Shown one piece after another: positions 1 through 54,745 of a stretch of DNA of 64,000 nt (position 1 is its first letter; each line of letters begins with the position of its first letter). The stretch comes from an uncultured virus (IMG/VR IMGVR_UViG_3300031994_005371) (taxonomy: Duplodnaviria; Heunggongvirae; Uroviricota; Caudoviricetes). A program made the position numbers and the translations under genes. Below the pieces are notes generated by a model that was given only the letters and a program-made list of their open reading frames with translations, was not told where the DNA came from and made no database searches. Location of the stretch: the IMG/VR virus record IMGVR_UViG_3300031994_005371; one strand, 5' to 3'.

Positions 1-831
1 TTAGGAGAAAAACGCCATAGCGGCGCTGGAAAGCCCCTCGTTTGAGGGTATGATATACCGCGCCGTAATAGCGCTGGAAGAGTGCTGGAGCACGCGGGAG
101 ATTTCCTCTGTTGCCACCCCGCGCCGGTTAAGGCACGTTGCCATGCTGATTCGGGCCGAGTGTGACGTGATAAACTCATATTTAGGTCCTTTCAGTTCTT
201 TGCCGCCCTTGAGGACTACCACCTCGTCGTTAATTCCGGCCTTCTTGCAAAGTTCGCGGATAGCCTCGTTATAGCACTTTGGCGTAACTTTGTACTCCGG
301 GTGTTCGGCCACCCATGCGATTCTGGCCTCGAGTCCCGGCTTCAGCGGGACCACCCCGGCCTTCTTTGTTTTTTGGGCCACGAATCTAATAACGCCCTCC
401 GAAATGTTTTCGGGAGTAAGGTTCATGGCGTCACCCACGCGGAGGCCCGTGTAGGCGCAGATAAGAAACACGTTCTTAACATACTCCTGCCGGGGCGTGT
501 GCGTCCTCGTTCCAGAAAGCATGTTGAGCTCGGTTTCCGTGAGATAGGTTTTCATCGGCTTTTGATTCTTGCATGAAAGAATCTTCTGCCAGCCTTTCGG
601 CAATTCCACGTCCTCGCAATAGCGGTTGAAGAGCGCCTTCGCGTAGGCCATGACCGTCTTTGCGGTTGAGGGCGCAACGGCCTCGGCCAGGTGGTCGTGA
701 AATTCATACAGCGCGGAGCGTGTAATATCGCCCCATTCGGAGATACCCACCGCGCCGAGGTGCTTGCGGAGGGAGGCCCCCGCCGCGCCTTTGTTCTGCA
801 TCTTGTCGATTGCTTCTTGTAATGTTCTCAT
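1..831 (-). CDS. Tyrosine recombinase/integrase (276 aa, no obvious N-terminal arm-binding domain)
   Basis: YTGLRVGD, HSAR, LQHSS and TARY give the R-H-x-x-R-H-Y catalytic set. Confidence 0.92.
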   Translation of the reverse strand: MRTLQEAIDKMQNKGAAGASLRKHLGAVGISEWGDITRSALYEFHDHLAEAVAPSTAKTVMAYAKALFNRYCEDVELPKGWQKILSCKNQKPMKTYLTETELNMLSGTRTHTPRQEYVKNVFLICAYTGLRVGDAMNLTPENISEGVIRFVAQKTKKAGVVPLKPGLEARIAWVAEHPEYKVTPKCYNEAIRELCKKAGINDEVVVLKGGKELKGPKYEFITSHSARISMATCLNRRGVATEEISRVLQHSSSAITARYIIPSNEGLSSAAMAFFS

Positions 832-876
832 AACTCAAAGATTTTTGATTTGGAAGGGAGAAGGGCGGTCAGGGCC

Positions 877-1116
877 CTACCTCCTTTTGTTTCGCTCAAT
901 AATCCTATCCTCATAGCCTTTTTTCGCTATCTTTAGCTGCTCATATTCGTAGCCGTAGATACCGAAAGTTTCTGCCAGAATGATAAGCTCATGGAGCTTG
1001 TAATACGCCGAGTCGAGCGTTTCCATGCCGATTTGATATGCGACGGGGCTTGTGATATTCTCCAGCCGGTCGCGCATGTGGCGGCGCATTTCTTTTTCGT
1101 TGATTTCTCTTGCCAT
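877..1116 (-). CDS. Hypothetical protein
   Basis: ATG embedded in the conserved start motif. Confidence 0.75.
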   Translation of the reverse strand: MAREINEKEMRRHMRDRLENITSPVAYQIGMETLDSAYYKLHELIILAETFGIYGYEYEQLKIAKKGYEDRIIERNKRR

Positions 1117-1152
1117 AACTCAAAGATTTAAGATTAGAGAAGGAGGAGGCGG

Positions 1153-1311
1153 TCAAGCCTCTTCCTCCTTTTTGCGTTTCGGCTCGCAGAATCCGCAGTG
1201 GCCGAATATCACCATAGACGCGCTATCGTAGCGTCCAATCCTGCACCCTTTTTTGGTGCGTCCGTCCCAATGCTGGCATTTCAAGCATGGTTCTCCTTTT
1301 TCCGGTTTCAT
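1153..1311 (-). CDS. Small Cys-rich protein, 52 aa (MKPEKGEPCLKCQHW...HCGFCEPKRKKEEEA), not in the ORF track
   Basis: Translated by hand; fills the slot between two array elements; its TGA stop lies in the hairpin loop. Confidence 0.65.
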   Translation of the reverse strand: MKPEKGEPCLKCQHWDGRTKKGCRIGRYDSASMVIFGHCGFCEPKRKKEEEA

Positions 1312-1630
1312 ATTCGTTAGATTTTAATGGTTTGGCGAGCCGGTGGCCGGTCAGGGCCACCCGCCCGAAACTAATTACCCCCCCCTCCCCGTTTTCCTCT
1401 TCCGGGTTCTTTTCGAGATACTCTCCAAGCCCGGCCTTCATCTTCTCTGCAAGCGCATCGAGGGCGCCCATGATTTCGTGGAAATCCTCCGCGAGCTTGC
1501 GCTTTTCCGGGTCGCTGGATTCCTCAAACCTCTTCGCGGTCGCTGCGGCGGGGATAGCCTTTGCCTTTTCGCGTAAAACGCGCTCAAAAATCCAAAGGGC
1601 TTCGTTGGGTGTCAATTCTACTTTAATCAT
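1223..1630 (-). CDS. Hypothetical protein; the true end may be near 1375 (G8-TAA tract)
   Basis: Start motif at 1630; the ORF runs through the next array hairpin only because of the G-tract length. Confidence 0.65.
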   Translation of the reverse strand: MIKVELTPNEALWIFERVLREKAKAIPAAATAKRFEESSDPEKRKLAEDFHEIMGALDALAEKMKAGLGEYLEKNPEEENGEGGVISFGRVALTGHRLAKPLKSNEYETGKRRTMLEMPALGRTHQKRVQDWTLR

Positions 1631-1701
1631 AACTCAAAAATTTAAAAGTGAAACATAGGTGTTTGGAAGAAGGCGGGAGGTATCAGCCCCCGCCCCCCTT
1701 A

Positions 1702-1908
1702 CTACTTTTTGAGCGTCTTTTCTAATTCACGCGCTTTGTCCTGCAGGCCGAGGTCAAAGGTCGCTGAAAGATAAAAAAGCTCCATGACATGCCCCCGGGC
1801 TTTTTCCGGGGTAATCATACCGGCGGCAACCATGTTGGTAGTGCCTTCGAGGTGTTCCTCCGCATACGCTTTGAGGTTTTCTTTTGTTACTTCTTTCGCC
1901 ATACTCAT
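1702..1908 (-). CDS. Hypothetical protein
   Basis: Array position; degenerate start motif. Confidence 0.7.
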   Translation of the reverse strand: MSMAKEVTKENLKAYAEEHLEGTTNMVAAGMITPEKARGHVMELFYLSATFDLGLQDKARELEKTLKK

Positions 1909-1962
1909 AAGATTTAATTGGTTTTTGAGCGCGGGAAAGGTATCACCCCGTCCCGCCCTTTT

Positions 1963-2208
1963 TCAGTACGGAAATGTGCAACCGGCCAGCACCCATTTTT
2001 CTACGTCACCGGCGGCTTCGAATAAAGTCCGCACCATGCTTGAAAGAACGTTATCGCCCAGCTTGAAAGTAACAAGGAGCGCCCCTTCTTGGTTGTGACT
2101 CACCACGACGGACTCGCCGTTTCGTGGATTACTCCACGCGGCCCGTATTCCGTGTTGTTCGCAAGCGTAGTAAATCTGCCTTGCGAGGTTTTCTTTTGTC
2201 TTACTCAT
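1963..2208 (-). CDS. Hypothetical protein
   Basis: Perfect start motif. Confidence 0.75.
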   Translation of the reverse strand: MSKTKENLARQIYYACEQHGIRAAWSNPRNGESVVVSHNQEGALLVTFKLGDNVLSSMVRTLFEAAGDVEKWVLAGCTFPY

Positions 2209-2265
2209 AACTCAAAGATTTAAGATTGGAGAAGGCGGGCCGCAATCAAGCCCCCGCCCTCTTTT

Positions 2266-2742
2266 TTAAGCGTTCGGATTCATCTGCCGGAGGATTTTTT
2301 TCATGGCCGCTTCGCACTGCCCCGCCACTTTCAGGCACAGGGCCGATTGGTCTTTGTCGCGGTCGTTTTCCAGCGCCCGGGCGGTCGCTTTCAGGCTCGC
2401 AGATTGGTCTGCAAGTGTGGCGGCAATTACCGTCATGTCCTCTTTTGTCAGCTCAACTTTCTGCTCTCGCGTGTCCGGCGTTCCTTCCCAGTCGGCAACC
2501 CATTCGATTCTTAAAAGTTCGTCCGGCTCCAGCATGTCGCGGTCGTTTCGCCATGCCTCCTCGGCGGCGGCTTTGATAGCATCGCGTTCGCAGTCGAAGA
2601 TTACGGCTTCGGTTCCGGCAATGGCGTGCCCGGCGATATTTCCGCAGAAAACAAGGTCATTGAAAATGTCGCGCATCATTTGATAGGCCATTTGATACTC
2701 GCGGCTCATAGGGTCCTCGATTTTGATAGATAGCTTATACAT
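2266..2742 (-). CDS. Hypothetical protein
   Basis: Variant start motif; array position. Confidence 0.75.
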   Translation of the reverse strand: MYKLSIKIEDPMSREYQMAYQMMRDIFNDLVFCGNIAGHAIAGTEAVIFDCERDAIKAAAEEAWRNDRDMLEPDELLRIEWVADWEGTPDTREQKVELTKEDMTVIAATLADQSASLKATARALENDRDKDQSALCLKVAGQCEAAMKKILRQMNPNA

Positions 2743-2798
2743 AACTCGTTAAGATTTGATTGTTTGGAGAAGGGAGGCGGTATCACCCGCCAGCCTTC

Positions 2799-3194
2799 TT
2801 AATCATCAACGTAGAAAAGAATATCCTCCGGGACGAAATCGAGGTCGTTGTAGTCAATCCCCTCGTCCCAGCAGTACTCTTGCATCTGGTCGCTTATCTG
2901 GTCGGCGAGTCTTGCGTCGGCCTGCAAAAGCGAGCATCGGTTCCGGTCGATAGCGCCCAGCGCCCGGCTCGTCCTTTCGTCCCAGCCTTCGATATTTTCC
3001 TTGCATCGTAGCCAGACGGCCCTCCGGGGCTCTTCCTTTTTCAGCTCCTCAAACATTTCTGGAGTCAGCTTTGAAAGGTCCAGCTTCACGCTCTCGCCGG
3101 TGCGGTAGCTCTTGATTTCGAGCACCGGGCCGTCAAATGAGAAAATCTTGCTTCCGTTAATGATTTTGATTGCGTTTTCGTAGGTCTGTTTCAT
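2799..3194 (-). CDS. Hypothetical protein with acidic C-terminus
   Basis: Perfect start motif. Confidence 0.75.
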   Translation of the reverse strand: MKQTYENAIKIINGSKIFSFDGPVLEIKSYRTGESVKLDLSKLTPEMFEELKKEEPRRAVWLRCKENIEGWDERTSRALGAIDRNRCSLLQADARLADQISDQMQEYCWDEGIDYNDLDFVPEDILFYVDD

Positions 3195-3249
3195 AACTCA
3201 AAGATTTAAGATTTGGCGGGCGGCTCGGGTATCACCCCGGCCCGTCCGT

Positions 3250-3486
3250 TTAACACATGCGGCCAGCGGTCAGTACCGGGGCCATAGAATAGCGCCCGTC
3301 CGGCATGACATACTCCTCTCCCCGGTCGTCCTTGACTCGCAGGGCTTTTTCCGGCCCGGTCCCGTCCTCTTTTACATAGATAGTTTTTTCCGTGCGGCGG
3401 GTAACGAGGTAGAACCATTTGCAATCATAGTCGCAAATAGAGCGGCAATAATACATTTTGCCGGGCTTAAATTGTGTTTTACTCAT
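3250..3486 (-). CDS. Hypothetical protein
   Basis: Perfect start motif. Confidence 0.75.
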   Translation of the reverse strand: MSKTQFKPGKMYYCRSICDYDCKWFYLVTRRTEKTIYVKEDGTGPEKALRVKDDRGEEYVMPDGRYSMAPVLTAGRMC

Positions 3487-3546
3487 AACTCAAAGATTTA
3501 AGATTTTAGCAAGCGCGGGAAGTATCACCCGCCCGCGCCCGTGGTG

Positions 3547-3939
3547 CTATCCAATGCTATAAAAGTGCTCTATGTGGTCGCAAAGTGTTATGTATTTTTC
3601 ATCTTTGCTCCCGTCGCCGTATCCGGCCCTTTTCCAGTCGAAAAACTCGCGCGAAAGGTTATCGGCGGCGATACACTCGCCATAGCTCATACTTTCTTGC
3701 TCCCCGCCCAAAATGAACGTGGCGCAGGCTTTTGCAACGAGCATAGCCCTATCGAGCTCGGTGTTGCTTATTTTGCCGTCCGGGGCATTGGTCGTAAACC
3801 GCAACGACTCCCCGAGGCCTCGCGTGATTGTGATTGCGCGGTCGAGGCCGCTGTTCAGGCAAACGTCGATACTGCGCTCGTTGTTTTTCTCCGCATCAAA
3901 GCAGAAGAGGATAGCAGTTACCATGATTTTCTTACTCAT
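3547..3939 (-). CDS. Hypothetical protein
   Basis: Perfect start motif. Confidence 0.75.
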   Translation of the reverse strand: MSKKIMVTAILFCFDAEKNNERSIDVCLNSGLDRAITITRGLGESLRFTTNAPDGKISNTELDRAMLVAKACATFILGGEQESMSYGECIAADNLSREFFDWKRAGYGDGSKDEKYITLCDHIEHFYSIG

Positions 3940-3979
3940 AACTCAAAGATTTTAAAGATTTAGCGAAGGAGGGCGCGTA

Positions 3980-4414
3980 TCAGGCCCCCGCCTCCATTTC
4001 GTTGAGCTCGTCTATTGCATCGTCGATTATATCCAGCGGCTTGTAATAGTGGCTCATGGCATTTTCTCTTGTGCGCTCGGGGAAGTCGCCCGGAGTCGGC
4101 ATGTAGCGCACGATTTCGGCGCGTGTCAGCTCCAGGGCCGTAACGGCCTCGGCGGTTTCGATATATTCCCCCGTCCGGCCTTTTTCAATCAGCCCGGAAA
4201 GGTAACTTCTATATCCCCCCGTCCCGGCCTTTTCAAGCGCCCTTAAAGCGTTAAAAAGGATTAAACGGACCTGCACCCCGGCCCGGTCTTTTTCTTCGTT
4301 TTTAGCGAAGTTTTGAGCCGTTTTCAGGGCTTCGGCTTCCCGCCAGTTGCGCATCATCAGCGCGAAGGGCAAAACGCAAATACATGTGATAGGGATTAAC
4401 CAAAAAATACTCAT
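3980..4414 (-). CDS. Hypothetical protein with N-terminal hydrophobic segment
   Basis: Start reassigned to MSIFWLIP (4414), next to an array element; stop in the hairpin loop. Confidence 0.7.
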   Translation of the reverse strand: MSIFWLIPITCICVLPFALMMRNWREAEALKTAQNFAKNEEKDRAGVQVRLILFNALRALEKAGTGGYRSYLSGLIEKGRTGEYIETAEAVTALELTRAEIVRYMPTPGDFPERTRENAMSHYYKPLDIIDDAIDELNEMEAGA

Positions 4415-4492
4415 AGATTTTAGATTTAATTTGGAAGCCGGGTGGAGCATCACCCCCGCCCGGCCTTGATTATGAAAACAATGCAAATCGCT

Positions 4493-4564
4493 CTATTCGG
4501 AGCGTTTTTCGGCCATGAGATTGACAAAAATTGCAATCAAAATCATAGGTACAAAAATAGTCAT
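4493..4564 (-). CDS. 23-aa hydrophobic peptide MTIFVPMILIAIFVNLMAEKRSE
   Basis: Perfect start motif; translated by hand. Confidence 0.5.
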   Translation of the reverse strand: MTIFVPMILIAIFVNLMAEKRSE

Positions 4565-4652
4565 AACTCAAAGATTTAAAGATTTTTAGAGAGCGGAAAG
4601 GGTATCACCCCTCCCCGCCCTTTTGTTTTACCCCCTCCCCCTTTTCTTTTTT

Positions 4653-5135
4653 TTAGTCGGCCCAGTGGAACATGTAAGCGCAGGCCTCGTCTTTTTTCGC
4701 GGCCTCCTCCTCGGTGTCGTTCTCGCTTTTGGCGTACTTGCTATCGAACATATCCAGCGCTTTGTAGTACAAATCGGCGTAAAGCTCGGACAGCCCTTGC
4801 TCGTTATTTGCGTGCCAGAACCACGACAAATGATTCAGGCTCATAATAAGCTCGGTGAAGTACTTGTAATCGGACAGCCAGCTGCGCGAGGCGCGGTTGT
4901 AGGTGTCTTTTATCGCGTTGTCCCCGAAGGGCTCGGCCAGGGCGAAATCCGATACAAACGTGGTAAAGCGCTTATATCCGTTATTTTCGCTCATAACCCG
5001 CTCAAAGATACGCTCCATAGCGGCTCCATAGACGAACGGATTGCTCCGGGCCTGCGTGAGAAGTTTCTTGACTCCCGGGCGCATGGCGCGGGCATAGGGG
5101 TTGCTCGTTTGGGTGGCGGTTGCAGTTGTACTCAT
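4653..5135 (-). CDS. Phage hypothetical protein
   Basis: Perfect start motif; 160-aa ORF. Confidence 0.8.
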   Translation of the reverse strand: MSTTATATQTSNPYARAMRPGVKKLLTQARSNPFVYGAAMERIFERVMSENNGYKRFTTFVSDFALAEPFGDNAIKDTYNRASRSWLSDYKYFTELIMSLNHLSWFWHANNEQGLSELYADLYYKALDMFDSKYAKSENDTEEEAAKKDEACAYMFHWAD

Positions 5136-5207
5136 AACTCAAAGATTTAAAAGTTAAACATGGCAGGCGTGGTCCCGGTCAGGGGGCCTCACCCGTTTCA
5201 ATCCTCG

Positions 5208-5474
5208 TTAGTCTTGAATGGCGACATATCGCCACTCGTAGCGGTACTGCCCCCGGGCTCCCGGGGTTTTGGTGTACGTGTTCTTGCAGAGGAGCGCGTC
5301 GCAGTCGGGGTTTATCTTCATCAGCTTATACCCGGCCCGGACGAGGATTTTAACCGCATCTTGAAAATTACTCGGTATCGAGTGGAAGGTAGGCTTATAT
5401 GAGCAAATGACATAGCGCCCGCCCTTTTTACGGTCTGCTCCCTCGGTGAGGAAGGATTTGTTTTTCAGATTCAT
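5208..5474 (-). CDS. Hypothetical protein
   Basis: Variant start motif. Confidence 0.7.
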   Translation of the reverse strand: MNLKNKSFLTEGADRKKGGRYVICSYKPTFHSIPSNFQDAVKILVRAGYKLMKINPDCDALLCKNTYTKTPGARGQYRYEWRYVAIQD

Positions 5475-5533
5475 AACTCAATAGATTTAGATTGTTTTGA
5501 ACCCCGGGCGCGGTATCAGCGCCCCCGGGATTT

Positions 5534-6352
5534 TTAGTCAGATAGTTTGCTAATTATAGCGGCGGTATTTAAGCCCCGCAGCTCGTAAAAAGATACTATC
5601 TTTTTTAGGTGTAGCCCGGCGTTTTTTGCGGCGTTTTCAATGCTGGAGGAGTCCGTAATTGGGGACCCGTGGCCGATTCTAAAATATGTATTTTTCAGTC
5701 CCGGCGCAACTTCCACAAAACGCAAATAATGCCGTCTTAACATGGACGGATTAACGAGGGGGTATGCCGTTTTTTTAATGTCAAGATACTGCGCCGAGTC
5801 CTTGATTCTTACAAACATATTGCAAGTATCATAACTGCCCCGGGAGGCGCTGCATTTAGAACCGAAATAAACGTATAAATTGACTCTATACCCGTTTTTT
5901 TCGAGTCCCATGAGCGCCCCCATGAGGGCGGCGGCGGTATCTTTCAGCTCGTTTGCATCTATATCGCATGAGGCCGTCCCATTATAGCAAATATTCAATA
6001 CTTTGCTATCTTTGTATGATACTCTTTCAGTCCGTATCATTGTTTTAGGAAGTCCCAGGAGGGCGGCGGGTACATTTGCCGCGCCCCCGCATATAGCGTT
6101 AAAACGGCGGGTCCTTTTTCCCTCTCCGAGGGTTTTTACATGGGCCGCAGTTGCTGATTTAAGGGCGGCGGCGCTTTTTTCGTCCCCGTCCCGGAGCAGC
6201 ACGTTTGCGGCTTCGTATGATTCAGTCCCGGAAAAAGACTCGGACCCGGTATGAGAGCCGCATCGATGGCCCTTAAATACCTCGTTTTCCGGGGTTGTAT
6301 CAAGATAGCCCCGGAGCCCGTCCAAATTGCTGAAGGTTTTTGTAATATCCAT
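5534..6352 (-). CDS. Probable VWA-like partner of the AAA+ ATPase
   Basis: Directly downstream of a MoxR/CbbQ-type ATPase; alpha/beta pattern (LNICYNGTAS, YRVNLYV). Confidence 0.55.
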   Translation of the reverse strand: MDITKTFSNLDGLRGYLDTTPENEVFKGHRCGSHTGSESFSGTESYEAANVLLRDGDEKSAAALKSATAAHVKTLGEGKRTRRFNAICGGAANVPAALLGLPKTMIRTERVSYKDSKVLNICYNGTASCDIDANELKDTAAALMGALMGLEKNGYRVNLYVYFGSKCSASRGSYDTCNMFVRIKDSAQYLDIKKTAYPLVNPSMLRRHYLRFVEVAPGLKNTYFRIGHGSPITDSSSIENAAKNAGLHLKKIVSFYELRGLNTAAIISKLSD

Positions 6353-6412
6353 AACTCAAAAATTTAAGATTCAGAACCCCGCCCCCGGTCCCCCGGGCGG
6401 CAGGATTTAATG

Positions 6413-7540
6413 CTACATTGCAAGGGCAAAAGCATTGTTTTTGTGGGTGAGCCCGGCGCGAAGTATGTTGATTTCGTCCCGGTCATAACCGCCCGTAACT
6501 GCAAGACGGACGGCGGCGGCGGTATCAATTCCGGCCTTCATGAACTTTGCGAGGCGGGATATATTTCTATATCCCAGGACGATATGAACCCCGGCCGCGG
6601 CGGCGCTTTTTCTCATGTCATAAATGAACTCGAGAATATCGGACCGCCCCCCGGCGAGGTTTTTCTCAATCTTTGTGCAATAATCAAATTGCATTAAGCA
6701 AAAGCGATTCATGGAGGAGGCATCGATAACGCTGCGGCCCGTGTACTCTTCAGTTGCACCCCGGCCGCAGGTATTTCCGGCCGCGATACAATGAAAATCC
6801 GGGTGCATTTTTTCGCGGCCCCCGGGGAAGGTAAAATACCCGTTTGCGAGGGCGGCGTTTAATGTTACAAGCGTATCCGGGCAGGAGGCGTCGAGCTCAT
6901 CTAACATGAAAACTCCGCCCCGGGTGAAGGCCCGGTAGAATTCCGTTTCATGATAATTGCCGGAGGCATCAAGATAGCCCGTTAATTTGTACTCGTCAGT
7001 TATGGAATTTTGATAGTAAAACTCCAGGCCGAGGGCGCGGGCTATTTGCTCACAAACGTAATTTTTACCGGACCCCGCAGGACCGTAAAGATAGACGGAC
7101 TCGCCGAGCTGCATGAGTTGCAAAAGCGCATCAAAATTTTGGTGCTTAACTTCATCATCTTTGCGGGCGGCGGGTGCGGGCGCGGGGACCGGGACGGGCT
7201 CCGGCATGGGTGCAGGAGCGGGCTCGGGTGCAGGCGTATCTTTGCGGGCGCGGCGGGTTATGTTTTCACGTATCTTTGCATAAGCCTCGGACCCCTCAAA
7301 ACATACGTTTTGCAGTTTTTCAGGACCGGACTCGGCGAGCATTGTAGCGGCTGCAGTTTCAGTCAGAACCCCGGAAAAATCCCCGAGGCGATACATGAAC
7401 TTCCAGCCGTACATGTTACCGAGTTTAGTGTTATTCCATGCAAGGGTATGAGAACCCAAAAACATAGAACCGGACTCGCAAATGATAGCGGATTTTTTGC
7501 CGTTAACATAGCATTTCAAAATGTTTGCATTGTGTTTCAT
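6413..7540 (-). CDS. MoxR/CbbQ/CobS-like AAA+ ATPase
   Basis: Walker A GPAGSGKN, Walker B FMLDELD, IAAGN, DASSMNRF; Pro/Ala linker. Confidence 0.88.
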   Translation of the reverse strand: MKHNANILKCYVNGKKSAIICESGSMFLGSHTLAWNNTKLGNMYGWKFMYRLGDFSGVLTETAAATMLAESGPEKLQNVCFEGSEAYAKIRENITRRARKDTPAPEPAPAPMPEPVPVPAPAPAARKDDEVKHQNFDALLQLMQLGESVYLYGPAGSGKNYVCEQIARALGLEFYYQNSITDEYKLTGYLDASGNYHETEFYRAFTRGGVFMLDELDASCPDTLVTLNAALANGYFTFPGGREKMHPDFHCIAAGNTCGRGATEEYTGRSVIDASSMNRFCLMQFDYCTKIEKNLAGGRSDILEFIYDMRKSAAAAGVHIVLGYRNISRLAKFMKAGIDTAAAVRLAVTGGYDRDEINILRAGLTHKNNAFALAM

Positions 7541-7671
7541 AACTCAAAGATTTAATTGTTTAACATTGGTATTTAAGCGGGGTATCAATCCCGGGAAAAT
7601 AAGCCCGGGCGCCGTATTGCACCCGGGGCGGCAAAAACAATTAAATCTAATTTTTTGAGTTATCGCAAATT

Positions 7672-7878
7672 TCAGATTGTATCAAAACGCCTGCAGTGCT
7701 TCGTTAAAACCATTTTAACGGGCTGCGCAAATAAAACATTTTCAGCGCCCTTCGTTACTTCGGTATTTTCGTACCTTTCAATCTTACTTTTTGCAGTATT
7801 GTCAATGAACTCCCCCGGCGGCGTGGGTCCTTGCATCGTGGATTGTAACGGGGTTTTATCAATCCGGACCCTCGGCAA
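7672..7878 (-). CDS. Possible small hypothetical protein
   Basis: ORF between the promoter and the array. Confidence 0.35.
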   Translation of the reverse strand: MPRVRIDKTPLQSTMQGPTPPGEFIDNTAKSKIERYENTEVTKGAENVLFAQPVKMVLTKHCRRFDTI

Positions 7879-7973
7879 ATAGTTTGTATCTTTGCGCCCG
7901 CTGATGTATCTTCATGTTTCCATGTTACTGCACCTCGGCAGCCGTTTGCGACGGGGCAAAAATCAAATCAAAC

Positions 7974-8022
7974 TATCAAAGAACTGATGCAAAGTTACGA
8001 AATATATTTTAACCGTCAAGAA
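7974..8022 (-). promoter_or_regulatory. Leftward promoter of the accessory array, followed by a boxA-like sequence
   Basis: Minus strand TTGAC...TAACTTTGCA (7988-7997), then AGTTCTTTGATA (7974-7985). Confidence 0.65.
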
Positions 8023-8410
8023 AAAATTTAACTTTTTTTGAAGGGAAGTTGTAAGTTGCATTATATCAATACTTTGCAAGGGGCGCGAAAATGGGCTTAA
8101 TTTTGAATAATTCTAATTTAGAAGGATATTTTAACGGAGGCCGGGGTATATTTTAACGCCCGGCGGCCCTCAATGGACCCCCGGCGGGACGGGTGCAAAG
8201 ATAGGCCCGGCGGCGTATCATGCCAAGCGCCCCAGGGCGAAGGATTGTAAAATAATTTAATAAGCCTCTATTTTGCCCGCTATTGCAAAGTAAGGGCGGC
8301 AAATGATAAATTATATATCCTTTGCGGGAAAATGCCTGCAAGGGCTTAAAAACGGCCAAAACGGGCATAATAGCAAACAAGGGGCCTCACGTGCGCAGGA
8401 GGGGCAAATA

Positions 8411-8476: not shown

Positions 8477-9007
8477 ATGCCGAAGACGGGATTAGGATTA
8501 GTAAATAAGACGCTCACCGAGCGAGAAAGGGCTGCAATAGCGCTGCATGTCTTTCAGGGCGTCACGGATTGGGCGCTATTATATGCCATAGCGCAGCCGG
8601 GGGCGTATGATAGGGACTTCCCAAAAAATAGCGTTTCCACGTGGAAAAATAGCGCCAAAATACGGGATTTGATACGGGACTATACTGCGGCCAGGGATGC
8701 CCGGGAAAACGCTATAAAAACGGCGGCATTTGAGGAAGGGCAGCGGGTATTGATTGAGCGGGCCGGGACGGATGATAACGGGGCCGGATTGGTGGATTAT
8801 AGTGACCCCAAAAATCAACTGCGGAAGCTAAATTTGCTCGTTAATTCAGCAAAGGACCCCGGCGAAGTGCTCGATGCGCTCAAGGTGATAATTTCCGGGC
8901 AGCGGGATGATAGGCAAGCGGCCCGGGAAGGGCGGCAGGTGCGGGCATATTTGCCGCTATTGTGCTATCAATGCCCGTTATATGAGGAAAAACGTAAAAA
9001 TATATAA
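8477..9007 (+). CDS. Putative terminase small subunit
   Basis: N-terminal HTH-like pattern (TERERAAI...LYAIA...KIRDLI) and helical C-terminus; no other terS candidate seen. Confidence 0.5.
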   Translation: MPKTGLGLVNKTLTERERAAIALHVFQGVTDWALLYAIAQPGAYDRDFPKNSVSTWKNSAKIRDLIRDYTAARDARENAIKTAAFEEGQRVLIERAGTDDNGAGLVDYSDPKNQLRKLNLLVNSAKDPGEVLDALKVIISGQRDDRQAAREGRQVRAYLPLLCYQCPLYEEKRKNI

Positions 9008-9293
9008 ATATTCTAACGTTTTCGGCGCTCAAAATCAAGCATTTAAGGACGCGAGCGGGGCTCGGGCGTGCCGGGGACCGGGGAGGGGGTAAACGGGGGC
9101 CGGACGGGGGCCGGGGGTGTAGACCCAAATTTATTTTTTCAAATTTTTTTCTGGCCTTCCAGCACTACCCTATCCGGCCTTGCGCCATTTCGTTGCGCAT
9201 GCTGTGGGAAAAAGTAACAACCTTGTTACATTTTTAAGCCCCAAAATTTGGCAAATGCAGATTTTTGTAGATTATACGCAACTTTTTCGGTCC

Positions 9294-9522
9294 AAACTTA
9301 CACCAAAAATCGCCATTCTACGGCCTTTAAATGCAGAAAATTGTAACTTTTGTAGATTTCACTATACTCTTTACGCGCATTTGGCAAAAAACTATAAATA
9401 GAATAAAAGAGTACTGCAAAACTTACAAAACTTGCAATTTTCGGCCTCTCGCGCCCTTGTAGTGCCGTTTTCCGTTGTAACTTTACCCTCCAAAACTTGC
9501 AATAAACTTACACAAACTTGCA
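9294..9522 (+). repeat. Six AAACTTRCA direct repeats; putative origin iterons or packaging site
   Basis: Copies at 9294,9419,9428,9493,9504,9514 in a ~600-bp AT-rich region without a convincing ORF. Confidence 0.6.
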
Positions 9523-14726: not shown

Positions 14727-15119
14727 TTAAATTGGCTCGGTAGCCCTTTTTACCTCGCGGAGCTGGATTCCGTGGAAGTAGAGCATCATCTTCCGCTTAA
14801 TCGGGTACTTTTCATCTGGAAAGCCCTTGCAGTCCTCAACAACAATATCTCCGTCTTTCATATAGACGTAATCGGCAACGTAAGTGACGGGCCGTTCAAT
14901 GAGCTTTTGGACGACCTTTTCTTTGGTCTTTAATTTCTTCACTACGGGCCGATATTGGGCCGGGAGTAACGGGAACTCAACCTGCTTACGAAGGTCGCTA
15001 ATTTCGCCCTTTTTGGCCGCTTCTTTGAGAATCAGCCAGCGGTTATATTCCAGCTTTGACGCAAACTCCCCTTCCGAGGTCACTATCTTTTTGTTTCCGT
15101 ATTTTCTGCGTGGTATCAT
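14727..15119 (-). CDS. DUF1064-like PD-(D/E)xK endonuclease
   Basis: KYGNKK..FASKLE..QVEFPL..YVADYVY..VEDCKG. Confidence 0.85.
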   Translation of the reverse strand: MIPRRKYGNKKIVTSEGEFASKLEYNRWLILKEAAKKGEISDLRKQVEFPLLPAQYRPVVKKLKTKEKVVQKLIERPVTYVADYVYMKDGDIVVEDCKGFPDEKYPIKRKMMLYFHGIQLREVKRATEPI

Positions 15120-15856
15120 ATTTCCATAGGTTCAAAGAAATACTCCGGGTAGCATTGGCAACGAGGGTGCGGACGCTCAAACGGTGTTCCGATAGGGATT
15201 TTCTTACCGCAAAGCGAGTCGCACTCCGGGCAGTCGAAGGACGAGCCCCGGTGACGGATATAATAACCCGCCCCTTGCGCCATAGCATCCACCCACTCGG
15301 CATAACGGGCCGCGTCTATAATCAAGTCCGCACCGATTAGCGAGAGCTGGTTATAGATATTGAAACTATATCCCGGCCCCCAGCCCATGCGCTTTATCCC
15401 GGCCTCCCGCCAAAGCGGGCAAAGAAACGGGTTGTTCATGTACCGGGAAATCAGCACCCGCAAATAACCCTTTGTGTAGTTCTTTGCGAGCGCGAGTCCA
15501 ACCCAGACAGAAAGCAGGTCCAAAAGGTGCTCCCCGGCAAGGTCAAAGCTCATACCGGCATACTTTTCGGAAAGGGCCGTTTCAAAGGCCACCTCCTCGT
15601 CCGCATAGTCCAGCGAGTCGGTAATCAGCGTATAGGCAATCTTCCTTGCGTCCTCAATGCAGCCGTCCGACAGCGCAACGCATTGGCGCATGGCCTCTTT
15701 GTAGAGCGTTTCGTCGGCGTCAAAAGAGAAATCAGCGCCGAGGTGCTTGTATTTCCATGCCAGTTCCAAAAGGGCCGCCAGCGCGTCGTTAAATCGCTTT
15801 TTCGACGCACCGGCGAACTCGTTTAGCGAGGCATTTATCTTGTGGTGGTTAAGCAT
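15116..15856 (-). CDS. Head morphogenesis/minor capsid protein (SPP1 gp7-like)
   Basis: Follows the portal; CPECD...HPRCQC C-terminus. Confidence 0.7.
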   Translation of the reverse strand: MLNHHKINASLNEFAGASKKRFNDALAALLELAWKYKHLGADFSFDADETLYKEAMRQCVALSDGCIEDARKIAYTLITDSLDYADEEVAFETALSEKYAGMSFDLAGEHLLDLLSVWVGLALAKNYTKGYLRVLISRYMNNPFLCPLWREAGIKRMGWGPGYSFNIYNQLSLIGADLIIDAARYAEWVDAMAQGAGYYIRHRGSSFDCPECDSLCGKKIPIGTPFERPHPRCQCYPEYFFEPMEI

Positions 15857-17354
15857 TGGTGCGGCTTGCGGTTACGGCGTTGTTCTTAATCTGTTGTGCG
15901 TTTATCTGCGCGGCGGCCACGGCCTCGTCGTGGGCCTCCTGCAGGAGCCTGTTCACCTCGTCCGGGGAAGAATAGCCAATGTTATAGGCGATTTCCGTTG
16001 CGGTCTTTTTAGACATAGCCCCGGCGGCAACAAGCTGCTGAATACCAGAAATCACGTCGTTTTCGGAAAGGAAAATGAACGGGTCCAGATAGGCTTTTAC
16101 TTTGAAAGAAGCAGTATCGCTTGCACGGTTTTCAGAAGTGAAGTAGGCAAACTTGAAGAGGCTTACAACCCCGTTCAGGAATTGCTGGTACTCGATAGAG
16201 TCCGAAAGGGCCTTCAGGTAAGAATCCGCAAAGAGCATCTTGACTGTCCGGGAGGACATATCAGCGCCAGACTTGATTTCGGGCGTTTCCACCGCGAACG
16301 AGCCTCGCATGATATTCTTTTCCATGATTTCCAGCTGCTTTGCAAAAGCGCCGTCAGCGCCCTGCGCGGGCTCCAGGAATCCAACCTTTGCGTTCGGGTC
16401 GATAGAGTCAATACGGTTTGGAGTGCCGTCCGTATTCGTCATTACCTCCATATCCCCGCCGAGGGTATAAAGAATCCTCAAAGCGTAGGCCGCATTGTTT
16501 TCGCTGAACTGCGAAATGCCGATTTCGTAACCGTCAATGATTCCCTGCGAGGCGGTCCAGACGGGGCCGGTATCGCGGCGGTGGTAGCGAACGGGAATAT
16601 CCGGGAAGCCGTGCGGTTTCGGCTCGCCTTCAAGCTCCCAGCCTTCGCCGTCCTCTTTCTTCTTATAAGTGGCAAACGAGGTGCGGTCGATTACGTCCAA
16701 ATACTCATGGGGATTGCCGTCCCAATCTTCCTGCACATACCGGCGGCCAAGAAGCGCCAGCTTGCCGGTCAGCGAGTCGTAGTGTGGATAGAGCGTGTCG
16801 CCACGGTTGTAGGAGAAAACGCGCCAGCCGGGTTTCCCATTGTCGAGATAGACGTAAACAGCAACGTCGCCAATCTTGTAATCCTCCTCAATCGCCTCGT
16901 TGATTGCTACCTCCATATCGTACTCTTCCCAGCCCTCACGGAAGAAGGAAAGGGTGTCAATCATCTTTTGGTTGGTCGCGTCGGAAATCAGCTTCATGCC
17001 GATATTGTTTCCGAGCAGGGCCTCTTTTCGCTTTGTTAAGATTCGCTCCTGAAAGCCGATTGCAATACGGCTTCGCACCTTTGCTTGATACGCACCGGTT
17101 TCCTTATTGACATAAAGGGTATTCGGGTAGTATTTGAGGTGGTTAATCTTGTGCGAGGTCGGAAAGAACTCGCGGTAAAAATCGGCCTGCGTCCGAAGCT
17201 CATGCTGGACGTTTGCAACCGTCTGGACGTAGGGAGCGGATGGGTTTATAATCGGAGTCGTGCCAATGACTCCGGGCGGGATAGGAACGGAAAAGGGCTT
17301 TTTCCGTAAGATTTGTTCGGGTGTCATTGCCCCGATAGACGGAGTAAGTCGCAT
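15849..17354 (-). CDS. Portal protein
   Basis: 501 aa, downstream of terL; HGFPDIPV, MSKKTA patterns of SPP1 gp6-like portals. Confidence 0.8.
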   Translation of the reverse strand: MRLTPSIGAMTPEQILRKKPFSVPIPPGVIGTTPIINPSAPYVQTVANVQHELRTQADFYREFFPTSHKINHLKYYPNTLYVNKETGAYQAKVRSRIAIGFQERILTKRKEALLGNNIGMKLISDATNQKMIDTLSFFREGWEEYDMEVAINEAIEEDYKIGDVAVYVYLDNGKPGWRVFSYNRGDTLYPHYDSLTGKLALLGRRYVQEDWDGNPHEYLDVIDRTSFATYKKKEDGEGWELEGEPKPHGFPDIPVRYHRRDTGPVWTASQGIIDGYEIGISQFSENNAAYALRILYTLGGDMEVMTNTDGTPNRIDSIDPNAKVGFLEPAQGADGAFAKQLEIMEKNIMRGSFAVETPEIKSGADMSSRTVKMLFADSYLKALSDSIEYQQFLNGVVSLFKFAYFTSENRASDTASFKVKAYLDPFIFLSENDVISGIQQLVAAGAMSKKTATEIAYNIGYSSPDEVNRLLQEAHDEAVAAAQINAQQIKNNAVTASRTNA

Positions 17355-17374
17355 GGTATATTCGTTTTAAAATT

Positions 17375-19030
17375 TTAACTTCCAAAAAAGCTCCAGTCGC
17401 CACGGCGCACGCGGCGCGTAGCCTTTGCATTGTCGGCCCGGTCCACCGCGTAGAGCAAAGCCTCGATAAAGTCCGGGGAATGGCCCAGCAGGGCAATCAT
17501 ATCCTTCTTTTTAATCAGCGAGCGGGGGCTTTCATTCTCAATCCATTTCAGCACGATGCGCTCTTGCATGAGCCGCTCTTCGATAGTGAACGGCACGCGC
17601 TTATCCATGAAGATTCTACGAAGCACGTTTTCCTCAATCGACATTTCGCCGTTCTGGATTTTGTCAATGAGAATACCGGCACATTCGGATTTGCGCTTTG
17701 TATATGCCGTTTTGTCCCGTGCCGGGCCTTTGTTGTCAAACGCATGCGCCCGGCGCAGGTCCTCGGACTGGCGGAGCCAGTTACCTACTCCGTTCACGTC
17801 ATAGGCGAAATCCTCATCGGCCACTTCGTTGCGTTTAAGAAAAGCCTTGATGCGAGGCACAACGTCCTCGGCGGTCACGTACTTTATCGCCTCTACGTCA
17901 ATGATATGCCAGCCGTCCATAGCCCAAAGCACAAGCCAGTCACCACGGAGCGCAATATCACCTCCGGCAACCCTGCGCCCGTTCGTTTGGGGGGCGTTTT
18001 GGAAAAACTTATACATATCCCCGGCGGTAATGAGCGAGCCGGTATCGTCAATATCCCGCCAAACGCCCCTAATATCGTTTATAACGGCCTTTGAGCCGCC
18101 GGACGATATTCTGTTCATATACTTCGGGTCGGACGCTTGCAGAATCTTATTTTCGCCAAATTCGCCGTCGATAAACGTAAGCGAGGTAATAAATTCTTTA
18201 TAGTCCCGGTCCGGGTTATCCGTAAGCGAGTTGATTTTGTTGCGGGCGTTGGGGTTGCGATAGACCTCTTCCGGGGTATCGCCCCAAGCGATTTCCGTAA
18301 CGTCCTCGCCGTAACGGCAGAAGTAGCGAATCTTTCCAGAGCGGGCCGGTATCGCCTCGTCCGTTTCCGGGTCAATCCACCAGTCCAGCAGCCAGCGCAG
18401 CTTATTTGATTTACCAACGGGGTTGCAGGTACAAATGAAACGAGCCGGGAGGCCGGTGGTGGAACGGTTGGAGCCCATGAGGTCAAAAATCACGTTCAGG
18501 TTATCCCGGGTGAACTCGGCCAGCTCCTCAATGACAATATAAGGCATTTCCGCACCACGGAAACGGTCTTTTACCGCTTTGAGGTCCGCCAAGTGCTCCA
18601 TTTTCATTGTGGCCCCGGCCCCGCCAAAGAACTTTGCTTCAAAGGACGTGTCGGCGAACGAGGCGAATCCACGGAAGATAGGCTTACAAGACTTCCAAAT
18701 ACCACGCTTTACGTCGTTTTCAAGGCGACGAAAGCCATACATGTTAACGTCGGGGTTTTCCGCGTAGTAAAGAGCACCTATAAGGCTTATGGCTGTTTTG
18801 CCAGCGCCACGTTTTCCTCCGCAAATGGTAATGTCGGCTTTACTGGTTAGCACCTTTTCCTGGAATCCCTCTTGTGGAATCAAATCCCAAATGCGTTTTC
18901 CGAGGCGCTTTTGCTCCAGATTTTCGTGCCGAATCTTTTGTGCGTACTCATACGAATACACCTCGACGCCATATTGCAGAAACACGGGGTCAAGGTACTG
19001 CTTATCGTCTATGACGGTTTGCTCGCTCAT
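17375..19030 (-). CDS. terL: Terminase large subunit
   Basis: PQEGFQ, GGKRGAGKT, IVIEE, TCNP, nuclease GGDIA...YDVNGVG...SPDFIEAL. Confidence 0.9.
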   Translation of the reverse strand: MSEQTVIDDKQYLDPVFLQYGVEVYSYEYAQKIRHENLEQKRLGKRIWDLIPQEGFQEKVLTSKADITICGGKRGAGKTAISLIGALYYAENPDVNMYGFRRLENDVKRGIWKSCKPIFRGFASFADTSFEAKFFGGAGATMKMEHLADLKAVKDRFRGAEMPYIVIEELAEFTRDNLNVIFDLMGSNRSTTGLPARFICTCNPVGKSNKLRWLLDWWIDPETDEAIPARSGKIRYFCRYGEDVTEIAWGDTPEEVYRNPNARNKINSLTDNPDRDYKEFITSLTFIDGEFGENKILQASDPKYMNRISSGGSKAVINDIRGVWRDIDDTGSLITAGDMYKFFQNAPQTNGRRVAGGDIALRGDWLVLWAMDGWHIIDVEAIKYVTAEDVVPRIKAFLKRNEVADEDFAYDVNGVGNWLRQSEDLRRAHAFDNKGPARDKTAYTKRKSECAGILIDKIQNGEMSIEENVLRRIFMDKRVPFTIEERLMQERIVLKWIENESPRSLIKKKDMIALLGHSPDFIEALLYAVDRADNAKATRRVRRGDWSFFGS

Positions 19031-19035
19031 TCTTT

Positions 19036-19110
19036 TGCAAAGATTGTAATTTGTTTTCAATACAAATCAATATTTATTGAAATGTATTGATTTTTTAGCC
19101 TTATATTTGC
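19036..19110. promoter_or_regulatory. Divergent late promoters with four TCAATA/TATTGA boxes
   Basis: TCAATA-N4-TCAATA-N2-TATTGA-N4-TATTGA (19057-19090) between AATCTTTG (minus) and TATATTTG (plus). Confidence 0.6.
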
Positions 19111-19402: not shown

Positions 19403-20071
19403 ATGAAACAAAAAATTATTGATGCGTTCAAGACGAAGTATTTGAGCTTTGGATTGAGCAACGAGGCTATTGACCGGATTGCCTCTGCATTGGAAAAGAC
19501 AGTCACCAAAGAAGAGGAAATCGCAGAGGCTTTGGCAAAAGTCGATACGATGAACCTTATCGCAAGTGAGCTTCAAAAGATGCGTGACAAGGAGATTCAA
19601 ACGCGAACCGACTTGCAGAACTCTTTTGAGGATTACAAAAAGAAGCACCCCGAAAGCAATCCTGACCCGGACCCCGACCCGGACCCCAACAAGGAACCCG
19701 AATGGGCCAAAACACTGCGCCAGCAGAACGAGCAGCTCCTCGCCCGCCAAAAGGCCGAGGACGATGCAAAAGCCCAGAAGGAACTTATCGCAAGGCTCGA
19801 GGCTGGACTGAAAAAGGCCGGTTGCGTCAATGCCGGTATCCTTGCCGGAGTACTGAAAGGCGTTGCCCTTCAGAAAGACGAAACCGAGGAGGCCGCGATT
19901 GAAAGGCTCAAAGGCGACTATAACGCCTCTGTGAAAGCAATCTTTGGCGACGGCCCTATTCCACCGGCGGCAGGTGGTAGTGCTTTCGGTGACGCAAAGA
20001 CCGCTCTTGACAAAAAGAACGCTTTTCTGCGCCAGCAGGGACTTCTCCCGGAACCCCAAAAAGCACAGTAA
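19403..20071 (+). CDS. Putative capsid scaffolding protein
   Basis: Position before the head genes; helical, with PDPDPDP linker and PEWAK. Confidence 0.65.
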   Translation: MKQKIIDAFKTKYLSFGLSNEAIDRIASALEKTVTKEEEIAEALAKVDTMNLIASELQKMRDKEIQTRTDLQNSFEDYKKKHPESNPDPDPDPDPNKEPEWAKTLRQQNEQLLARQKAEDDAKAQKELIARLEAGLKKAGCVNAGILAGVLKGVALQKDETEEAAIERLKGDYNASVKAIFGDGPIPPAAGGSAFGDAKTALDKKNAFLRQQGLLPEPQKAQ

Positions 20072-20089
20072 CCTTTAACTCAAAGCACC

Positions 20090-20743
20090 ATGCCTAAATT
20101 CAGCTCTTTCAACGCTTATGGCTCCGAGGCTAACGAAATCGGCCAGAGCCATGTTCCCGTTTGGCTTGGTACGGTTGCTCCTCACGCGGTAGGTGGTATG
20201 CTTAATACCGCTTTCTTGAAGAAGGGCCTCCGTATTCCCGCCGGTACGGGTGTAAACCTGACTGCGGGTGTCATTAACCCGCTCCTTACCTACGTGGTTA
20301 AGGCTGTGAATACTGGCGTGATTACCATTGACCCGAAGGAATATGGTTTCACCCCCGCTGTCGGCGAGTATCTGTTCCTCGTGAACGCTGATAGCTTCGC
20401 CTCCAACGGTAGCCCCGTCGCAATCACCGCCGTTGCCGCCAACGCCGCTAACTCCGCACTTCTGGACGTAACCGTCGCCATTGAAGGTGTGGCCGTCGGA
20501 AGTGTTGTAGCTTTCGCCCCCACCAGCGGGGCCGTTCCCGCCCCTAACGGCTATCTCTACAACGACATTTACCTCGGTGGAATCGAAGTCACCGCCGCGA
20601 CTATCGCCGACAAGACCGCCGCCGCCTCTGGTGCTGTCGTTGATTTCCACGGAGAGGGCCTGCTCGTTGAGCTTACCCCTTGCGCCGGAATCGAGAAAGC
20701 CATGAAGGCCGCCGTTCCGAACGTAATCCAGGTGCTCGTTTAA
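20090..20743 (+). CDS. Putative head decoration protein
   Basis: Between scaffold and capsid; Ala/Val/Gly-rich. Confidence 0.6.
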   Translation: MPKFSSFNAYGSEANEIGQSHVPVWLGTVAPHAVGGMLNTAFLKKGLRIPAGTGVNLTAGVINPLLTYVVKAVNTGVITIDPKEYGFTPAVGEYLFLVNADSFASNGSPVAITAVAANAANSALLDVTVAIEGVAVGSVVAFAPTSGAVPAPNGYLYNDIYLGGIEVTAATIADKTAAASGAVVDFHGEGLLVELTPCAGIEKAMKAAVPNVIQVLV

Positions 20744-20769
20744 CCCTTAACGAATAGGAGAAAAACACT

Positions 20770-21939: not shown

Positions 21940-21970
21940 AGACCGCGCTAATCCCTAATTGAAGGAAGAA

Positions 21971-22345
21971 ATGGCAGACATAAGCACAAACCTAACTTTC
22001 GTAAGGTGGCTCCGGGCAAAGTCCGAGCCGTTCATGGACCTTTCCGATGATTTCCTTTTCTCTGTCCTCATCGGGCGGGACATTACGGACGATTCCATGC
22101 TTTATTCCGAAGCTACCGAGAAACAAAAGGACCTCTGCCTCGCAGACGTGTATTATGCCGCTGCCGTTTCTTCCGTCAAGACGGGGACGCAGGGCGAATC
22201 CGATGGCGGGTGGACCCATTACGTCGCAATCAAGAACGCCGTTAACCGCTCCGGCTTGCTGGATATGGCGAAGGCGCTCTACGACAAGTGGGGCGAGTCC
22301 TTCATTGACCCGCGGAATAAAATCCGCATGAAGCCTTTGTATTAG
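21971..22345 (+). CDS. Putative head-tail adaptor
   Basis: Synteny and size. Confidence 0.55.
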   Translation: MADISTNLTFVRWLRAKSEPFMDLSDDFLFSVLIGRDITDDSMLYSEATEKQKDLCLADVYYAAAVSSVKTGTQGESDGGWTHYVAIKNAVNRSGLLDMAKALYDKWGESFIDPRNKIRMKPLY

Positions 22346-22346
22346 T

Positions 22347-23595: not shown

Positions 23596-23597
23596 CT

Positions 23598-24191: not shown

Positions 24192-24261
24192 CCGGCGTAA
24201 CGGAACCTAAACCGAGGGGCTGGGTGTGCAAAGCCCTGCCCCTTTTTAAATCCAAGAACAC

Positions 24262-25058: not shown

Positions 25059-25069
25059 AAATCAACACT

Positions 25070-29452: not shown

Positions 29453-29565
29453 ATCCATTGGCCCTTTTAACTCGCTATCAATAAGCGCGTTATATTACTT
29501 TCAAATCAATACATTTCAATACTTTTTGGCCCTTATAGGGCCAAATTGCTTAAAATTGTGACGCT

Positions 29566-30087: not shown

Positions 30088-30090
30088 TCT

Positions 30091-40893: not shown

Positions 40894-40919
40894 TAAAATA
40901 GAGGGCGCTTTATAAAGTT

Positions 40920-54688: not shown

Positions 54689-54745
54689 AACTCAAAGTGT
54701 TTTGTATGGTAGCCGGAGGCGGTATCACCCGCGACCGGCTAATGT

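Follow-up and report, generated by a model that had tools for sequence, protein, structure and literature searches.

A hairpin resembling the top half of a tRNA precedes every gene of a phage operon and may punctuate its mRNA

The DNA analyzed here, 64,000 nucleotides of the uncultured virus IMGVR_UViG_3300031994_005371 (the window), covers the greater part of a tailed phage genome of ~65 kb. It carries genes for portal, terminase, capsid, tape measure, methyltransferases and repressors, an Erf-like annealase, a RecE-like exonuclease and NinB/Orf, together with six tRNA genes. The phage appears to be a temperate siphophage of Bacteroidales type. Its leftward, early-type operon, presumably read from one promoter near 7995, is an array of 16 minus-strand open reading frames (ORFs), all in the same direction (7540 to 1), with a hairpin 5' of each. 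This hairpin and its C(C)A tail, which we call the element, resemble the acceptor/T-arm half of a tRNA and may mark sites at which host tRNA-processing enzymes divide the message. The array and related features are as follows.

7990-8019, minus: predicted primary promoter (TAnnTTTG at 7997-7990, TTG 19 nt upstream); we take the TAnnTTTG consensus to be of Bacteroidota type
7976-7985, minus: decamer at the leader 5' end, found in only part of the relatives; we take it to be boxA-like
7635-7666, minus: leader segment antisense to the array start-region consensus, with predicted cis pairing to the gene-1 start region (from leader comparison, folds and duplex energies)
7604-7627, minus: leader hairpin A, 9 bp, covarying, loop starting AAU
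7567-7601, minus: element 1, weak stem, CCA at 15 nt
6413-7540, minus: g1, MoxR/CobS-like AAA ATPase, 375 aa (AAA_5, phrog_249)
6372-6407, minus: element 2, GGACC loop, CTG tail (counterparts in L024, L029 and L031 have CCA)
5534-6352, minus: g2, DUF7192 protein, 272 aa
5497-5532, minus: element 3, covariance-model match
5208-5474, minus: g3, orphan, hypervariable slot
5161-5195, minus: element 4, covariance-model match
4653-5135, minus: g4, conserved protein, family F3
4587-4621, minus: element 5, covariance-model match
4493-4564, minus: g5, hydrophobic peptide ORF, 23 aa
4432-4466, minus: element 6, covariance-model match
3980-4414, minus: g6, family F4, terminated by the loop TGA of element 7
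3961-3996, minus: element 7, covariance-model match
3547-3939, minus: g7, variable gene
3507-3541, minus: element 8, covariance-model match
3250-3486, minus: g8, variable gene
3214-3248, minus: element 9, covariance-model match
2799-3194, minus: g9, family F8
2765-2799, minus: element 10, covariance-model match
2266-2742, minus: g10
2227-2262, minus: element 11, covariance-model match
1963-2208, minus: g11
1925-1959, minus: element 12, covariance-model match
1702-1902, minus: g12
1664-1699, minus: element 13, covariance-model match
1223-1630, minus: g13, 135 aa, reads through element 14
1333-1367, minus: element 14, covariance-model match
1153-1311, minus: g14, Cys-rich ORF, 52 aa; its stop is the loop TGA of element 15
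1135-1169, minus: element 15, covariance-model match
877-1116, minus: g15
851-886, minus: element 16, covariance-model match
1-831, minus: g16, short tyrosine recombinase, 276 aa, with catalytic residues R131/K154/H224/R227/H250/Y259
54707-54741, minus: lone element, 13 bp, GTGATA loop, CCA, before an ORF starting at 54688
61367-61401, minus: possible further copy (weak, E 0.19), 13 bp, CTGACC loop, CTC tail, upstream of the tRNA cluster with no start codon following

In g13 the stop is out of frame after a run of G, giving 135 aa, and the counterpart in relative L001 stops at 86 aa; the extension could be an assembly slip or a real variant. Pfam and PHROGs gave no match for the 12 small array proteins submitted (g5 was outside this set), and the ESM Atlas gave none for g4 and g9.

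Ten further arrays of the same clade were collected and aligned on the hairpin loop. The elements share an ungapped 13-bp stem, a 6-nt N-Y-G-A-Y-M loop and then the C(C)A tail; conservation sits in the loop and 3' tail, not in the paired core. Among 115 distinct elements, the distance from the loop A to the start of CCA is 15 nt in 62 and, with 7-nt loops, 16 nt in 14; no other offset accounts for more than seven. A wider set drew on 22 regions, 21 of which yielded 176 distinct hairpins, including some that belong to leaders or arise by chance. Pairing spans 32 nt in 81 of these 176 and 30-33 nt in 131. In the 142 hairpins with even loops, pairing collapses past 13 bp; C follows in 126, then C in 88 and A in 114, with the full CCA in 77.

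Within the window array, the loops are TGATAC (9/16) and TGACC (4/16), with TGATGC, TGATTG and GGACC making up the other three. Nine tails are CCA, six are C-N-A and one is CTG; the lone copy ends in CCA. A preliminary description, made from the letters of the window, had reported the 16 co-oriented genes with their hairpins and the lone full copy, and both are borne out, the latter at 54707-54741 before an ATG at 54688. It had also singled out the nearly constant TGATAC/TGACC loop. These loops do occur in 13 of the 16 copies, but they are not the sole constant, as the 13-bp stem length and the 3' C(C)A are equally constant. The reported use of the loop TGA as the stop codon of the upstream gene was found at 1153-1155 and 3980-3982. 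Over the larger collection, 21 of 108 elements contain the stop of the upstream gene within the hairpin, and in 16 of these it is the loop UGA.

Several results indicate that a structure on one strand has been selected. A descriptor combining the 13-position stem, a YGR loop and CCA has seven matches on the coding strand of the array and none on the other strand, compared with a mean of 0.015 and a maximum of one in 200 dinucleotide shuffles. Without CCA, the matches number 14 against a shuffle mean of 1.62 (maximum 7). In 40 hand-framed elements, 90.2% of stem cells are paired, compared with 44.6-54.2% when the partners are slid. Double changes occur at 13 of 13 stem pairs in these 40; both results are partly circular because the sequences were chosen for pairing. 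On the coding strand, stems hold 136 G.T and 36 A.C combinations (the elements are not independent), and this excess of G.T indicates that the coding (mRNA) strand is the one that folds. A covariance model recovers 15 copies in the window at E<0.001, the lone copy included; it misses those at 7567-7601 (weak stem) and 6372-6407 (GGACC). Covariation and G.U bias support the strand-specific structure that the preliminary description had proposed. Our literature search, which covered the main texts of open-licence PubMed Central (PMC) papers and bioRxiv, found no description of this element.

The geometry corresponds to that of the top half of a tRNA. The 15-nt register from loop A to tail equals the spacing of A58 to C74 in tRNA, and, as in a minihelix with its coaxial helix of 12-13 bp, the paired stretch stops at 13 bp and N-C-C-A comes directly after it, 15 nt past the A58 equivalent. 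The ends of the 142 hairpins are also tRNA-like, with G at +1 in 103, G at -1 in only 11 and C at 73 in only six. We compared the tails with those of 33 distinct tRNA genes that ARAGORN predicts in these phage loci. C occupies the tail position in 31 of the 33 and C-N-A in 26 (CAA 12, CCA 7, CTA 5, CGA 2); the same four tails are found in the elements, where C-N-A occurs in 112 of 142. Two apparent links to particular tRNAs were discarded. The enriched G.U pair is not the G3-U70 alanine identity, since it lies one pair nearer the end counted from CCA, and a tRNA-Ser call within array L166 lies inside an ORF.

If both feet of each hairpin were cut, the products would be 35-nt tRNA-top RNAs, ~16 per transcript, that might act early in infection by titrating tRNA-targeting defence effectors or enzymes that handle tRNA. 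The tail counts suit such decoys, as CCA is commoner in elements (77/142) than in the phage tRNA genes (7/33), and many copies lie in one early-type transcript. A strict place of one per gene, after stops and before starts, which the lone copy shares, instead suits a mark acting in cis, and the stem sequences have no shared identity elements. We regard a decoy role as improbable.

The distribution of the elements was examined in 80 viral loci fetched by recombinase alignment, of which 49, together with three annotated records, were scanned for hairpins before CCA with no loop motif demanded. In seven of the 52 distant loci, the coding strand has 5-13 such hairpins, compared with 0-1 for the opposite strand, and NYGR loops reappear in these distant arrays. 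In L169 and L175, the hairpins are of the same kind and are followed by C-N-A. The array of L233 keeps the 13 bp, the 6-nt loop and the first C; the loop sequence is not kept, and one element has a true T-loop. The covariance model has 70 matches in 13 of 50 loci, all 70 on the coding strand. In five of five positive records its matches cluster in one array per genome, and it has no match in five other recombinase-bearing records, including that of L233.

Some relatives carry copies outside the arrays. Single 13-bp/6-nt hairpins, each following a gene that lies past the recombinase and without a start region after them, occur at L001 11532, L020 18368 and L021 17313, and at L001 15596 a further copy with CCA lies upstream of a tRNA cluster, like that at window 61401. 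The more distant loci L013, L014, L015 and L025 contain the AAA gene (with DUF7192) and no element match, so the gene pair and the elements are separable.

A comparison of five element-positive and four element-negative genomes revealed no recognizable phage nuclease or RNA-binding gene that tracks the arrays, a weak test confounded by kinship. Two small ORFs resembling DNA/RNA-binding proteins (61835-62077 and 60053-60646) are present in four of the five positive and none of the four negative genomes. These ORFs count in favor of a reading in which the hairpins are bound and not cut. A host or phage protein that recognizes the helix by its length of 13 bp, together with the YGA loop and the 3' C, might stabilize decay intermediates, or insulate translation starts from the upstream ribosome. 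The structural evidence described above fits binding equally, stops inside the hairpin would be tolerated, and G.U is enriched at one stem position (65/142), as in protein-read helices. However, binding leaves the likeness to tRNA precursors in register and tail unexplained, and the co-occurring ORFs may reflect kinship only. We give this explanation some weight and consider it unlikely.

The preliminary description had included a start motif and the ATG in each element. Exact TTTGAGTTATG precedes only 11 of the 16 array genes and also stands before three genes that have no hairpin (53045, 51694 and 62739), and the arrays of L166, L179 and L212 have a different start region with no GAGTTATG. 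The element is the hairpin with its tail; TTTGAGTT-ATG is a lineage-specific start region outside it. We also rejected TTTGAGTTATG as a recombination core, promoter or boxA, because it precedes hairpin-less genes and is absent from the three arrays just named.

A leader of ~450 nt follows the predicted promoter at 7997-7990. In 12 of 13 otherwise divergent leaders, a segment antisense to the start-region consensus is kept, and a covarying 9-bp hairpin follows it. In all 10 single folds the antisense segment pairs with the gene-1 start, enclosing the leader hairpin and element 1, and there are matching changes between phages; the RNAalifold consensus did not recover this long helix. The AACUCAA part of the antisense segment does not vary, not even in L001, L020 and L030, whose gene 1 no longer carries the complement; this would allow for another partner or for action in trans. 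Duplexes of the antisense segment have energies of -15.8 kcal/mol with array starts and -7.3 kcal/mol with 51 other genes, a difference that arises because array starts resemble one another. In nine distant loci, the best antisense duplex sites were not a conserved leader element, in a scan that also missed the known L031 site. We claim the antisense feature for the AAA/DUF7192 clade only. The leader arrangement recurs in miniature in L179 (~7960) and L212 (~9280), where a short stretch 5' of one internal element is antisense to the start region that this element precedes. A second long, structured-looking non-coding leader, at window 61950-62600 (minus strand), follows a promoter divergent from the repressor genes and begins with a start-region-like TTTGAGTT at 62504.

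The boxA-like decamer that starts the leader in some relatives and the conserved leader hairpin are reminiscent of antitermination, and the preliminary description had raised boxB-like sites as a function of the element. By that account, RNA polymerase would be kept processive along the operon by antitermination or pausing at the hairpins. Such sites do not call for a repeat before every gene with a 13-bp ruler and CCA. There is also little to read through: a 3' U-tract follows the hairpin on the coding strand in only five of 118 elements, so these do not have the form of intrinsic terminators. An A-rich 5' flank, which would be a U-tract if read on the other strand, is found in 33 of the 118, and the TAnnTTTG promoter motif in none. 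No N-like partner was identified, and the single leader hairpin is a better nut-like candidate than the repeats. The search of open-licence PMC papers and bioRxiv found no paper on the boxA likeness. An antitermination site at every gene is thus quite improbable.

The genes between the elements vary. Close arrays share a backbone of AAA, DUF7192, variable slot, F3 and F4, with the recombinase last in all six that reach the end, and between elements genes are gained, lost and replaced, as the preliminary description had anticipated. Relative to L001, g3 and g7 plus g8 are replaced and two genes are extra; run X4 shows a replacement across 5196-5482. Reversals of gene order are seen in only 11 of 593 pairs compared. 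Breakpoints of identity coincide with CCA, with the 5' foot, with a point in the start region or with an ATG that has no hairpin, and chimeric stems never occur. This pattern is the one expected from exchange within conserved flanks, as for the PeSLs of T4-like phages.

The position of g16 at the end of the array had suggested that the elements are recombination sites at which this enzyme shuffles cassettes on a folded strand, in the manner of an integron or shufflon. The 13-6-13 inverted-repeat geometry, the single-strand bias and the several breakpoints at CCA are all compatible with this idea, and the catalytic residues R131/K154/H224/R227/H250/Y259 are intact and invariant in 34 sequences. 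Nevertheless, homologues at 56%, 44%, 43% and 42% identity, and the Bacteroides phage LoVEphage, have the recombinase without elements, and an element also precedes the never-swapped first gene and a distant gene. An IntI-specific insertion is a hallmark of integron integrases. The window recombinase does not match the integron-integrase model TIGR02249 (relatives reach at most 23 bits against a cut-off of 265), and its spacing of 93 aa between boxes I and II is like that of XerA (91); Foldseek does not discriminate between XerA, lambda Int, XerH, IntI4 and Cre as its structural neighbors. Contigs of four runs, from which rare forms tend to be lost, show no supported junction of a circle or an inversion. 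Because order is nearly fixed, breakpoints vary, and homologues of the recombinase occur without elements, the array does not behave as an integron or shufflon, and we hold recombination at the hairpins by g16 to be highly improbable. In four of five close relatives, a second, convergent tyrosine recombinase lies 1-2 kb past the array.

Among the functions offered in the preliminary description, RNase processing fits best. Structure, strand, fixed geometry, tail, and conservation and distribution are established by the comparisons above, and cutting is the part that we infer. Bacterial RNase P is described as cleaving acceptor/T-stem hairpins, with a preference for G+1 and pairing with D73-C74-C75 (PMC11143913), and tRNA-processing enzymes as measuring along the acceptor/T stack like rulers (PMC4810234). 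On the mRNA, each intergenic element would fold as a minimal acceptor/T-arm stack, with 13 bp, a 6-nt loop, G-A at tRNA positions 57/58 and then C-C-A. Host RNase P at the 5' foot, and/or RNase Z or RNase E with trimming at the 3' foot, might take it for a pre-tRNA. The polycistronic message would then be split into single-gene units, and in each of these a hairpin would protect one end and the start region would be AU-rich and 14-37 nt long; a 5' cut would leave every downstream mRNA with a paired 5' end. Because each unit would carry its own processing mark and start region, ORFs could be exchanged, and unrelated ORFs would be swapped between conserved flanks by homologous or microhomology recombination, which would lead to cassette-like variation. 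The phage-encoded annealase, exonuclease and NinB/Orf would be available for this exchange, and the terminal recombinase would be merely the last gene of the operon. Judging from sequence comparisons, tRNA-like punctuation with homologous gene exchange is, by our estimate, the probable explanation, if only slightly so.

A number of observations weigh against this reading. A 5' cut would create stop-less upstream mRNAs in the 21 of 108 cases noted above, and CCA is not relaxed there (12/21 versus 58/87, p 0.45). A 3' cut spares the stops, but according to PMC7479834 some RNase Z enzymes are inhibited by a C or CCA tail and others cut behind CCA; each of the two enzymes is thus at odds with part of the copies. 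Cuts that remove stops have a precedent in the t-elements of plants, some ends of which lie inside reading frames, as reported in PMC1920247. The loop is not a canonical 7-nt T-loop (UUCRANY): it has 6 nt and no UUC, and only G-A (57/58) and the register agree. Nor is the discriminator unpaired. The equivalent of position 73 is mostly G or U and is paired with N-1 in 100 of 142 hairpins, like the 8-bp acceptor stems of tRNA-His type, whereas the phage tRNAs have A73 in 25 of 33. The elements give no Rfam match; in Rfam 15 only tRNAs match the window at the gathering score, and nothing matches in 700-8200 (elements and leader) at E<=1. The L233 array retains only geometry and the first C, and the G.T bias leaves RNA and single-stranded DNA undistinguished. 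Contigs of RNA run X20 cover six of 30 bins of the region, which counts neither for nor against a cut.

A more far-reaching version of punctuation, on the pattern of mitochondria, would have host enzymes excise 35-nt tRNA-top RNAs between all genes, giving swappable units and a burst of decoys, with the leader RNA acting in trans as antisense to all start regions. We consider this combination doubtful.

The host presumably belongs to Bacteroidales, on the basis only of the promoter type, the likeness to LoVEphage and the ruminant gut runs; sheep and goat gut metagenomes hold similar sequence. A search of contigs in the GTDB database with the AAA alignment gave no match. The exact element pattern occurs in 96 stretches of those contigs, and the 80 that were fetched contain no array and one single weak hairpin. 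In the order of a Bacteroidales metagenome-assembled genome, the recombinase profile matched none of 401 genomes and the covariance model matched once in 151 cellular genomes, in searches of limited sensitivity without a positive control.

Other features of the window were noted. A tRNA-shaped RNA at 61038-61122 (minus strand) has normal acceptor, D and T arms, an encoded CCA and an enlarged anticodon arm; it is not called by ARAGORN or at the Rfam gathering score, and its folding z is -1.85. A diversity-generating retroelement occupies 40093-42125 (plus strand), with an Avd-like gene and reverse transcriptase 3' of a 450-aa candidate target gene (38480-39832). Portal and terminase genes (15116-19060, minus) run opposite to capsid and tail genes (19403-38205, plus). 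At 8477-9400, a divergent 176-aa ORF, presumably similar to a small terminase (a profile search gave no match), is followed by a GC-skewed low-complexity stretch. Summed contig depth, which is no measure of copy number, is raised at 8877-9193 in runs X3 and X4. This region may be a genome end beside the early operon.

If the predicted cut is real, the phage naturally employs host tRNA-processing enzymes on its mRNA across a whole operon. The more than 150 natural variants would then define what Bacteroidota RNase P and RNase Z need (helix length, G+1, C74) without a T-loop, and would bear on the extent of RNase P action on bacterial mRNAs, a question raised in PMC11143913. Promoter-less orphan early genes could be explained as plug-in modules, and the 35-nt element might provide a portable processing part for Bacteroides engineering.

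The tRNA punctuation of mitochondria and the t-elements of plants are a close functional parallel. Forner et al. 2007 (PMC1920247) describe folds that resemble tRNAs or acceptor stems, lie between protein genes and are proposed as cis signals for RNase P and RNase Z. Some of the ends described there fall within reading frames, as some cuts would here. The present case differs in belonging to a bacterial virus, with one minimal 35-nt fold per gene, fixed geometry, an encoded C(C)A and a 6-nt non-canonical loop, and in that cleavage is only predicted. As described in PMC11143913 and PMC12710915, model hairpin substrates of RNase P share with the elements a continuous ~12-13-bp helix, G+1, a 3' NCCA and a single-stranded leader. 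The elements, in contrast, are natural, lie within mRNA, have a 6-nt NYGAYM loop rather than a 7-nt T-loop, and usually pair N-1 with N73. Selective RNA processing and stabilization operons of Clostridia also have intergenic stem-loops, whose suggested role is to set mRNA levels gene by gene once cleavage has occurred; these operons are cellular, and the short search summaries of PMC4423207 and PMC8219983 mention no tRNA-like geometry.

In their gene turnover, the arrays resemble the PeSLs, which are described as repeated intergenic stem-loops with start regions that flank orphan ORFs in a hypervariable early region (PMC2839356, PMC4122927). Gene gain, loss and replacement through recombination in conserved flanks, reported for PeSLs (PMC2839356), is found here as well. 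PeSLs, as characterized there, are promoter-plus-terminator units with variably placed stems, whereas the elements have no promoter motif in 118 cases and have a fixed tRNA-top geometry. As for the excised mini-circles of PeSLs, the contigs of the four runs, which lose rare forms, hold no supported circle junction. Integron cassettes, as presented in PMC8618304, are likewise single ORFs, each with a sequence-variable hairpin, beside a tyrosine recombinase. Unlike attC, which folds from the bottom strand, the elements fold from the coding strand, and they conserve the loop and not the stem base. The array also has no attI-like entry site, its order is conserved, it has no fixed crossover point, and its recombinase is neither IntI nor tied to the elements. 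LoVEphage (MW660583) has a similar genome layout, in which a 37% identical short recombinase ends the early operon and faces a full-length integrase; unlike the window, its early operon has no element array. By these comparisons, the element departs from a canonical minihelix in loop and discriminator, from PeSLs in promoter content, and from integron cassettes. It would function like a t-element or tRNA punctuation and evolve like a PeSL module.

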